Under the pieces are notes generated by a model, which saw only the letters and a list, made by a program, of their open reading frames with translations, had not been told where the DNA came from and ran no database searches. Made by a program: the position numbers and the translations under genes. 64,000 nt of DNA from a virus, in IMG/VR virus record IMGVR_UViG_3300024513_000016, positions 48,243 to 112,242 of that record; one strand, written 5' to 3'. How positions within the stretch are numbered: position 1 is the first letter of the stretch; each line of letters starts with the position of its first letter. Shown here piece after piece: positions 28,264 to 30,037 of the stretch.

Positions 28264-29016
28264 TTATGGAGAAAGTCTTGCTTTATGAAGTCTCTTTTCT
28301 TCATAATAATCCCATACATTAGGTGCCCATCTTTTAAGAATAGGTGCAATTTGTTCAGTAAGTGCTTGAATCTCAAGTTGAGCATCTAGTTTTGCTCTAA
28401 GATCCATTAGGTGAAGAGCAGATCTGAGATTAAATGATACTACAAAATTTTGTCGGATTGCTTGTGCAAGATAATCACGAATGTGCTCTTCGCACATACC
28501 CTTTTCATACTTTACAGCATACCTTTTACAACCCTCTAAAATCCAATTAAGTTCATCATGATAATCTTCTTCTGTCCAATCATATTTTTTACCATAACGA
28601 TTTACATAAAACCCAGGAGGACGAACGTAAAAAACATCTTCAGTATTAAGTTCCCCACTTGCAACTTTTACAACTCTTTTTCCAGTATAACGTTGTGATT
28701 GAACATCAAAACTTACTCCCACTCTGTGAGTCCTTGCTTGCATCGCAACGTTATGGACATACCCAGAGACCGAAACGGTAATGCCAGGGTGCTCCAGAGG
28801 TCCCCAGTGACCCTTATCATTCGATAGGAGACGTTCTACAATCCATTTGCCACACCCAGATGAATTTGGAATGTCTTGAGTATGAATAGGTGTCTCAGAG
28901 TAATCACACTTTGCTGCCTGATAAATGACTTGTTCTGGAATTGGATAGCATTGTAGCATTACTACTTCCAAATTTTTATCAAGTTCAAGAAGATCTTTTG
29001 CTTTAATTGGTTTCAT
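28264..29016 (-). CDS. thyX: Flavin-dependent thymidylate synthase
   Basis: GHWGPLEH, QARTHR...SFDVQSQRY, NLRS..H..DLR....AQLEI. Confidence 0.92.
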   Translation of the reverse strand: MKPIKAKDLLELDKNLEVVMLQCYPIPEQVIYQAAKCDYSETPIHTQDIPNSSGCGKWIVERLLSNDKGHWGPLEHPGITVSVSGYVHNVAMQARTHRVGVSFDVQSQRYTGKRVVKVASGELNTEDVFYVRPPGFYVNRYGKKYDWTEEDYHDELNWILEGCKRYAVKYEKGMCEEHIRDYLAQAIRQNFVVSFNLRSALHLMDLRAKLDAQLEIQALTEQIAPILKRWAPNVWDYYEEKRLHKARLSP

Positions 29017-29350: not shown

Positions 29351-29389
29351 ATTTTACATAAAAAAAGGGGGGAAGTCAAGTCCCCCTTC
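29351..29389 (-). terminator. Intrinsic terminator overlapping a sigma70 promoter
   Basis: Minus strand GGGGGA-CTTGACT-TCCCCC then C and T-run; contains TTGACT-17-TAAAAT. Confidence 0.75.
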
Positions 29390-29392
29390 ATA

Positions 29393-29494
29393 TTATTTTG
29401 CTGCTAACAAAGTAGCAAGAGATGCTTGATGACGACGTTCTTCTTTTTGTTTTTGTTCTTTAATCAATTGAAGTACATTAATAGTTTTAATCAT
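29393..29494 (-). CDS. 33-aa basic peptide coupled to the DUF4278 gene
   Basis: MIKTINVLQLIKEQKQKEERRHQASLATLLAAK; ATGA overlap and GGAGG RBS. Confidence 0.65.
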   Translation of the reverse strand: MIKTINVLQLIKEQKQKEERRHQASLATLLAAK

Positions 29495-29628
29495 TTATGT
29501 CCCTCCTTTACAAACTTAACCCCACGATAGGTCTCGTTGTATTGTTGAGGTTGTTGCATCATTTGTTGTTGATACTCAAGACGTTTTTGGGTATCATACT
29601 CGACACCACGATAAACTACTTTAGACAT
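29491..29628 (-). CDS. DUF4278-family small protein, 45 aa
   Basis: MSKVVYRGVEYDT...ETYRGVKFVK with two YRGV motifs; AAGGAG RBS; downstream of aptamers. Confidence 0.85.
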   Translation of the reverse strand: MSKVVYRGVEYDTQKRLEYQQQMMQQPQQYNETYRGVKFVKEGHK

Positions 29629-29661
29629 TAGGGTTGCTCCTTTACTTTTTAAGGTTAGGTG

Positions 29662-29705
29662 GCGTTCCTTCCGTCGGCTTTTGCGTCCCTTAGTAGGATG
29701 AACGA
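29662..29705 (-). ncRNA. glnA-type glutamine riboswitch-like aptamer 2 (compact)
   Basis: UCGUUCAUCCU-ACUAA-GGGACGCAAAAGCCGACGGAAGGAACGC: P1 CGUUC/GAACG and short P2. Confidence 0.8.
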
Positions 29706-29747
29706 CCTACTCTTTTTCCACAATAGGTATAGAAAAACATAGGCATT

Positions 29748-30002
29748 CCGTTCCGAGTCGGCGTACTTCCGTCCTATTTAATTTTAGCACTTTTGAATAA
29801 AATCCTTTCGGAGTTCTAATAGCAATCGGTCTTCTGTTCTTTGATTAACTACATCGTCGTTTTTAACGATGTCCATTAGTTCCCACACAGTATCACAACT
29901 AAGTTTAACTGCATATTCAGTTGCAGTTAGTTGTGAAGTAGAAAAAGAAAGAAATGGAACCCATGCTAAAAGCAAAAGTGCTTTAGCCATAGGATGAACG
30001 AT
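29748..30002 (-). ncRNA. glnA-type glutamine riboswitch-like aptamer 1 with an ORF in the P2 loop
   Basis: 5' half AUCGUUCAUCCUAU (30002-29989); 3' half AUAGGACGGAAGUACGCCGACUCGGAACGG (29777-29748). Confidence 0.75.
29784..29990 (-). CDS. 68-aa protein with signal-peptide-like N-terminus and two Cys, nested in aptamer 1
   Basis: ORF track; hydrophobic N-terminus; SC-x26-ELRK-x5-C. Confidence 0.7.
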   Translation of the reverse strand: MAKALLLLAWVPFLSFSTSQLTATEYAVKLSCDTVWELMDIVKNDDVVNQRTEDRLLLELRKDFIQKC

Positions 30003-30008
30003 AATTGC

Positions 30009-30037
30009 AGTATACTACCTACAATATATCTAGTCAA
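30009..30037 (-). promoter_or_regulatory. Sigma70-type promoter of the riboswitch transcript
   Basis: TTGACT-17-TATACT; predicted +1 near 30002, the first base of aptamer 1. Confidence 0.8.

Follow-up and report, generated by a model that had tools for sequence, protein, structure and literature searches.

Can an aptamer in a viral transcript hold a complete protein gene inside one of its stems, and what kind of sensor would its two halves then build? The question is raised by a locus on the minus strand of the stretch analysed here (the window), which covers 64 kb of the 112-kb IMG/VR virus record IMGVR_UViG_3300024513_000016, a record about 54% complete; the closest DNA relatives of the window are the freshwater Synechococcus myoviruses DSL-LC02 and S-SRM01. 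Riboswitch aptamers are generally pictured as compact leaders without coding function, and their use by phages is said to be rare. At this locus, a 68-codon open reading frame (ORF), which we call ORF68, lies between the two halves of a glutamine-aptamer-like sequence, and a second, compact unit follows ahead of a DUF4278-like gene. A preliminary description, made from the letters alone, had read the split unit as a glutamine aptamer with a gene nested in its P2 loop. What emerges from the present analysis is a glutamine-I-type riboswitch with an interlocked second core and a gene in the P2 loop, a combination for which the literature covered gave no published description; we consider the architecture, as described below, highly probable. 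The layout is found in hundreds of cyanophage contigs, and isolate records (307) exist for the inner nested-ORF family only.

In the proposed fold, the split unit (unit 1) is made up of the following elements, with positions counted from the first base of the window:

30002..29988, minus strand: 5' half of the unit, AUCGUUCAUCCUAUG
30000..29996, minus strand: outer P1 5' strand, CGUUC(1), invariant in all units
29995, minus strand: single A between CGUUC(1) and the P2 5' strand
29994..29989, minus strand: P2 5' strand UCCUAU, whose last two bases are the A and U of the ORF68 AUG (29990, 29989)
29990..29784, minus strand: ORF68, the nested 68-codon gene, with a signal-like hydrophobic N-terminus and then a two-Cys helical part
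29993..29960, minus strand: local hairpin CCUAUG..CAUGGG, which competes for the P2 5' strand (-13.5 kcal/mol)
29872..29851, minus strand: hairpin within ORF68, ACAUCGUU-AAAAAC-GACGAUGU, 100% paired in 41 sequences
29783..29778, minus strand: six bases, AAUUAA, after the ORF68 stop
29777..29748, minus strand: 3' half of the unit, AUAGGACGGAAGUACGCCGACUCGGAACGG
29777..29772, minus strand: P2 3' strand AUAGGA, 6 nucleotides (nt) past the ORF68 stop
29771..29764, minus strand: J2/3, CGGAAGUA, with the linchpin G29769 and the AGUA half of the E-loop
29763..29756, minus strand: P3 5' strand of unit 1, CGCCGACU, part of an inter-unit helix
29755..29754, minus strand: CG dinucleotide
29753..29749, minus strand: inner P1' strand GAACG(1); the next base, G29748, pairs with the inner linchpin C

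All of the sequence statements in the preliminary description (the promoter, the two halves, the ORF, the spacing and the lack of a Shine-Dalgarno (SD) sequence) hold at their minus-strand positions, and its view of the flanks as the two halves of a glutamine-I-type aptamer stands, with the core elements present and in register. The resemblance goes beyond chance. The 5' half is identical at 12 of 12 bases to the intact aptamer located 300 nt downstream. Exact CGTTCAYCC occurs twice in the 64 kb, both times at the element and on the minus strand; GGACGSAA also has two matches, both at the element, where 0.83 would be expected. The ORF68 AUG has no purine-rich SD upstream.

The structural case was built on covariation, because the energy-based folds disagree on P2. 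The P2 pairing proposed earlier is conserved in homologues: across the nested ORFs, 5.53 of the 6 P2 positions are paired (173 unique split units) compared with 4.30 in shuffles, not one of 2000 of which is as high, and for the 72 units in outer position alone the observed P2 pairing is again reached by 0 of 2000 shuffles. The P2 types in these 72 units include UCCUAU/AUAGGA, UCUUAU/AUAAGA, UCCAAU/AUUGGA and UCUCAU/AUGAGA, and two-sided changes are numerous among the split units as a whole, UCCUCA/UGAGGA being one of them. The flanked layout recurs as well, since in 76 of the 80 contigs compared, all encoding an ORF68 relative, the 5' half lies 10 nt ahead of the ORF match and the 3' half comes after it. 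Judged from these substitutions, P2 closes around ORF68, with the AUG in the stem.

By its pattern of variation and its relatives, ORF68 is a real gene, because its ratio of nonsynonymous to synonymous polymorphism (pN/pS) is 0.31 in frame, its insertions and deletions come in threes, and it has at least 250 relatives. The codon statistics are those of 41 unique sequences, in which variation ranks codon position 3 > 1 > 2 and the other two frames have pN/pS values of 0.9 and 1.9. The inner nested-ORF family, which is described below, has a pN/pS of 0.51 in frame. For the two families together the off-frame values range over 0.8-1.9, with 4-7 stops per sequence; all insertions and deletions in nested ORFs are multiples of three, and none of the 41 + 27 + 78 unique variants has its frame interrupted. 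Relatives of ORF68 are located on 209 viral contigs, the family is 66-69 amino acids (aa) in length, and the related proteins make up at least 250 protein clusters, none of which is named. ORF68 itself has no Pfam or PHROG match and no tblastn match among phage isolates, and its AlphaFold model is of low confidence, with a predicted local distance difference test score (pLDDT) of 58.6.

It could be argued that the insert is untranslated, being a structured peripheral RNA domain of P2 with a frame that is open by chance. There is indeed structure in the insert. The internal hairpin at 29872..29851 is conserved, with one compensatory pair (n = 1) among the 41 sequences; a long-range helix, GCACUU/AAGUGC, is 95% paired; synonymous diversity is low over codons 1-16 and 33-48, the hairpin included; and the AUG, besides having no SD, is buried in every predicted fold. 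The internal hairpin and the low synonymous diversity point to further, unexplained RNA-level constraints on ORF68. An untranslated domain is nevertheless highly improbable in view of the contrast between in-frame and off-frame pN/pS in both families, the insertions and deletions in threes and the open frames, the confident helical fold predicted for the inner family (pLDDT 81) together with its match to PHROG 504, and the fact that the ORFs outlive the loss of the aptamer.

A separate observation concerns a 36-mer inside ORF68 (29848..29883), whose k-mer depth in metatranscriptome contigs reaches up to 1333 compared with about 25 beside it. This 36-mer breaks assemblies, which shows its exact sharing among many co-occurring phage strains.

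Nested ORFs of other families were found at the corresponding places in related elements. An unbiased pattern scan for the 3' half of unit 2 returned at least 120 viral contigs; among the matches listed, unit 2 is split by an ORF of 49-65 codons in 82 and compact in 37. Cellular genome contigs scanned with GGAACGGNNCGTTCAT gave at least 120 chance matches in unrelated bacteria, and none of those listed has a flanking core. Among cyanophage isolates, 307 records, those of S-SM1, S-RIM2 and S-SM2 included, contain the inner-ORF family, invariably annotated as hypothetical. In all of the nested ORFs the AUG lies within the 5' strand of the stem. The stop of the ORF68 family is a few bases ahead of the P2 3' strand, and the stops of the other families are inside the 3' strand (UAG/UAA), in AAGUAAG, or in GACUGAAGG. 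The ORFs in outer position (ORF68 and its marine counterpart) share a hydrophobic, signal-like N-terminus, and two conserved Cys residues about 35 residues apart are common to all nested-ORF families, in proteins that diverge to 21-30% identity. A Foldseek search of the PDB with the model of the inner family, a small helical protein, gave nothing below E 4.7, and a nested-protein query of a protein atlas returned solely its own viral cluster. In a profile comparison, the outer and inner families match with 33% probability and E 4e-4 over 20 columns around the first Cys, which suggests that they are related.

Two contigs, L044 (1490-1760) and L025 (1490-1900), are natural deletion variants that retain the nested ORFs and lack both the aptamer 3' halves and the DUF4278 gene. 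L044 also has a mutated P1 5' strand, CAGTTCA, and a terminator directly after the ORF. Such variants, and the fact that the split unit is not detected by Rfam, would suit the notion of a relic: a small gene inserted in the P2 loop inactivated the aptamer, the two halves are kept by descent, and only the compact unit works. Yet the halves are conserved base for base in more than 170 diverged split units, around proteins that have drifted as far apart as just described, and P2 covaries across the insert. Moreover, the outer core provides the AGUA and a linchpin base, both of which are absent from the compact unit, and it is after the loss of the 3' half that the 5' P1 strand mutates in L044. 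We give a relic very little credence.

The architecture depends on the relation of unit 1 to the compact unit downstream (unit 2), which consists of the following elements:

29747..29705, minus strand: 43-nt spacer hairpin capping the inner P1'
29704..29700, minus strand: inner P1' strand CGUUC(2), the second CGUUCA being 29704..29699
29698..29686, minus strand: inner P2' hairpin UCCU-ACUAA-GGGA, compact in the window
29685..29680, minus strand: inner junction CGCAAA, with the inner linchpin C29683
29679..29672, minus strand: P3 3' strand of unit 2, AGCCGACG
29671..29668, minus strand: GAAG half of the E-loop
29667..29663, minus strand: outer P1 3' strand GAACG(2)
29662, minus strand: linchpin C directly after GAACG(2)

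Complementary pairs of units, 3-4 nt apart, are present in 118 of 137 unique clusters; 41 of the paired clusters are split+split, 36 compact+split, 28 split+compact and 13 compact+compact. The two units of a pair are not alike. Unit 1 has CG(G/C)AAGUA and no GAAGG, and unit 2 has CGCAAA plus GAAGGAACG. No single unit has both halves of the E-loop, AGUA and GAAG; in the window, AGUA is in the J2/3 of unit 1 and GAAG in unit 2. With the E-loop halves in different units, only an interlocked fold fits.

Tandem glnA RNAs in the literature have been read as two aptamers with a more digital response (Weinberg et al. 2010, PMC2864571), and the preliminary description had placed the locus among such tandems. 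If the two units were independent in this way, the split unit would close its own P1 and would have lost P3, and the compact unit alone would control the DUF4278 gene. The strands concerned are complementary, the 266-nt split unit taken by itself folds with P2 at a probability of 0.9-0.99 and its own P1 at 0.31, and in Rfam alignments each compact unit comes out as an aptamer of its own. The presence of two units was correctly seen; their independence is at odds with the distribution of the E-loop halves and with the covariation of both P3 and the linchpin, by which they form one nested double core.

The earlier statement that P3 is missing is right to the extent that no local P3 hairpin exists between AGUA and GAAG, but P3 is present as an inter-unit helix around the second core, in which the octamer that follows AGUA in unit 1 is paired with the octamer preceding GAAG in unit 2. 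At the P3 pair adjoining CGGAACG (X:Y), the inter-unit helix has UA in 11, GC in 10 and AU in 7 of 28 cases and is never unpaired, whereas the rival local self-hairpins break in 17 of the 28. Short variants of P3 are perfect helices (e.g., AGUCG/CGACU and GUCA/UGAC), and at the far, E-loop end of P3 there is a compensatory change, with C-G in the window and S-SRM01 and A-U in most units.

The linchpin is the ligand-dependent G23-C60 pair between a G of J2/3 and the C after P1 (PMC11477058; PMC6212724). When the variable base of the unit-1 ACG-N-AAGUA is set against the base after the last GAACG, the two are Watson-Crick partners in 96 of 96 unique pairs (C:G 64, G:C 32), with both states found within one P3 class; in the tandem register they are Watson-Crick in 64 of 96 only and mismatched in 32 of 96, for unit 1 and for unit 2 alike. 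In the window this linchpin pair is G29769-C29662. The inner core has its own linchpin: in 93 of 96 unique pairs its C has the G that follows GAACG(1) as partner. The P2' of the inner core covaries in 5 of 6 pairs. As the P1 strands are invariant, no covariation is possible in P1, and the partner of each strand was assigned from the covariation of the linchpin and P3. Because both of these cross between units, CGUUC 30000..29996 most likely pairs with GAACG 29667..29663; the pairing with GAACG 29753..29749 of the same unit, as first proposed, is not borne out, since the same-unit linchpin breaks in those 32 of 96. GAACG(1) most likely pairs with CGUUC(2) across the spacer hairpin, and GAACG(1)-spacer-CGUUC(2) is predicted as one continuous hairpin of -17.8 kcal/mol, with the spacer stacking on the inner P1'. 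In the fold of the whole element, the outer P1, CGUUC(1)-GAACG(2), has a probability of 0.9-1.0 and the same-unit P1 pairs have 0.0. On the strength of this covariation the "tandem aptamers" are one interlocked double core, with two three-way junctions and one shared P3, in which the outer core encloses ORF68 and the inner core, the latter lying in the P3 loop. Two independent aptamers are, in our judgement, very unlikely.

In most relatives, the inner P2' holds a second nested ORF. The spacer at 29747..29705 opens with GCCUAUG and a short frame, MFFYTYCGK..., resembling the starts of the inner ORFs (MF..L.Y..L.C), and it may derive from a second nested gene, since lost, and now act as a hairpin cap. 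Most relatives have a loop of 3-4 nt in place of the spacer; L121 (44 nt) and L202 have similar insertions. There is also a relative with a single core, L020, which has a hairpin P3 with the same C.A mismatch, plus a nested ORF68 homologue.

With the fold in place, the identity of the ligand can be considered. The type 1 glutamine riboswitch (RF01739), as in the gifB/IF17 leader of Synechocystis, has in common with the element here the P1 CGUUC/GAACG, the P2 and the J2/3 sequence, as well as the AGUA/GAAG E-loop and the ligand-dependent linchpin G-C after P1 (PMC6212724; PMC11477058); each precedes a small gene, of DUF4278 in the case of gifB and probably of DUF4278 here, with its SD maskable by the tail after P1. 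The differences are that P3 is here a helix between units which has a second, permuted core as its loop, and that the loop of P2 consists of the 68-codon gene, whose AUG falls in the stem, so that the element is about 340 nt rather than about 60. At the Rfam gathering score nothing was found in the window, in agreement with the earlier expectation that scans with covariance models would overlook the element. A scan by E-value picked out the compact downstream unit alone, which reaches 27.8 bits for RF01739 and so stays below the gathering score of 35. In place of a loop-deleted element, natural compact counterparts from DSL-LC02 and S-SRM01 were used; the counterpart of the outer unit in DSL-LC02, which is compact and loop-free, attains 35.6 bits with the same model. 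The inner unit was also compared with RF01704, for which it has 15.2 bits (E 0.43), below the gathering score of 33.

The fold may of course be right without glutamine being the ligand; the element could respond to another ligand or to a protein, or it could act as a clamp on the ends of the mRNA for stability. The inner core has no E-loop, P3 retains two A.C mismatches, and the units in the window are below the gathering score. However, all of the conserved core elements of glutamine-I are in register (CGUUCA, ACGGAAGUA, GAAGGAACG and the linchpin), and the downstream gene is probably of the DUF4278 (IF17-like) type that is under glutamine riboswitches in cyanobacteria (PMC6212724). We consider it unlikely that glutamine is not the ligand.

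The remaining features of the transcription unit are these:

30037..30009, minus strand: sigma-70-type promoter-like site TTGACT-17-TATACT, with a predicted start at about 30002
29642..29637, minus strand: SD AAGGAG of the DUF4278-like gene
29628..29491, minus strand: 45-aa DUF4278-like (IF17-like) gene
29494..29393, minus strand: 33-aa ORF overlapping the stop of the DUF4278-like gene
29386..29368, minus strand: intrinsic terminator, plus a U run

The element is upstream of a probable DUF4278 gene, as the preliminary description had it, and a strong SD stands ahead of this gene. The 45-aa product is a weak match to Pfam DUF4278 (E 0.0017; 19.1 bits, below the cut-off of 25.3) and matches phrog_5049 at E 1e-10, with the YRGV..Y motifs typical of the DUF4278 family.

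How might such an element work? Glutamine binding to the gifB leader brings in the C that follows P1, and the proposed consequence is the release of an SD-masking helix, which turns on the translation of IF17 (PMC6212724). In the window, P2 would join the start region of ORF68 to its stop region, and because of this pairing the sensor could fold only as long as neither the start nor the stop of ORF68 is occupied by a ribosome: a ribosome at either place would keep the outer core from forming, and the folded sensor would hide the ORF68 AUG. By analogy with gifB, glutamine would recruit the linchpin C of the tail after P1 and so free the SD of the DUF4278-like gene. High glutamine would then turn off initiation on ORF68 and turn on the IF17-like gene; low glutamine, or heavy translation of ORF68, would leave ORF68 on and the IF17-like gene off. 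A double-core glutamine riboswitch built around ORF68 with reciprocal control is our best overall explanation, and we hold it to be rather more probable than otherwise. The direction of regulation is put forward tentatively. Equally tentative is the fuller proposal of mutual gating, in which ribosomes moving along ORF68 control glutamine sensing and glutamine in turn controls ORF68, so that during infection a previously unrecognised double core, possibly with two ligand sites, gives opposite outputs for two small nitrogen-control proteins.

It is worth pointing out that several observations weigh against this explanation. P1 and P2 are invariant within the ORF68 family, and P2 of ORF68 is supported by way of the other nested-ORF families. 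The energy model of the whole element gives P2 and P3 a probability of 0.01 or less, and RNAalifold with 41 homologues picks a local hairpin that takes in the P2 5' strand, a hairpin for which there is no covariation. The local hairpin at 29993..29960 buries the AUG without any help from the sensor, and in the light of this predicted structure a simple on/off logic may be wrong. The nested protein does not need the sensor and has a role of its own, because two contigs retain the ORFs without the 3' halves. For the inner nested ORFs, termination beside the anti-SD could couple, and not oppose, translation downstream.

If fold and translation do compete, the element would represent a new coupling of metabolite sensing to translation and a compact route to opposite responses of two genes, and it would open a way to study how cyanophages sense and direct the nitrogen status of the host through IF17-like proteins. 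In the literature on glutamine riboswitches that was covered, with Ames and Breaker 2011 and Ren et al. 2015 outside its scope, no nested gene or shared P3 was found. A census in 2017 had only two glutamine aptamers in cyanophages (PMC5473149). Standard covariance-model scans miss the element described here, and riboswitch censuses undercount elements with large inserts.

Compared with the known classes, the element has two adjoining CGUUCA...GGAACG units in one leader in common with the tandem glnA RNAs (PMC2864571), and differs from them in that the units share P3 and the linchpins cross over. With Glutamine-II (the Downstream-peptide RNA, RF01704), a class which precedes DUF4278-like genes, the inner unit shares the CGCA junction and the lack of AGUA; unlike that class, it has kept GAAGGAACG together with a helix of the P1 type and is integrated into an outer core of type 1, and by its score it is not a member.

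Group I introns carry homing-endonuclease ORFs in their peripheral loops. The likeness is that of a protein gene in a stem-loop of a structured RNA, so that translation and folding compete. The present case differs in that the gene is hosted by a small ligand sensor within an mRNA leader, start and stop codons fall in the closing stem, and the nested protein is without sign of being a mobility enzyme.

Transcription is predicted to start near 30002. A -10-like hexamer lies 7-10 nt before CGUUCA in 126 of 132 unique related upstream regions, and 93 of these 126 have a -35-like hexamer too. Metatranscriptome contigs from two campaigns contain the stretch; such contigs show no start, strand or level and may include DNA. 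One of them ends at 29371, at the terminator, which is no more than a weak hint.

Further along the operon, the 33-aa ORF (MIKTINVLQLIKEQKQKEERRHQASLATLLAAK) is conserved and overlaps the stop of the DUF4278-like gene by ATGA; in marine relatives, the LQLIKEQ motif is found joined to the N-terminus of the YRG-motif protein. A gene for a ThyX-type thymidylate synthase (28264..29016, minus strand) lies downstream of the operon, and the neighbourhood in S-SRM01 is alike, with thymidylate synthase behind the small ORFs. On the upstream side, most relatives (L003-L082) carry, some 10-45 nt ahead of CGTTCA, a covarying inverted repeat with the -10 hexamer in its loop. These repeats include AGGAG-TATAATAAT-CTCCT (e.g., L006 1361-1405), GGGG-..-CCCC and AGAGG-..-CCTCT, and bring to mind the promoter-stem-loop cassettes known from T4-type phages. 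In the window, the palindrome AGTATACT is all that is present.

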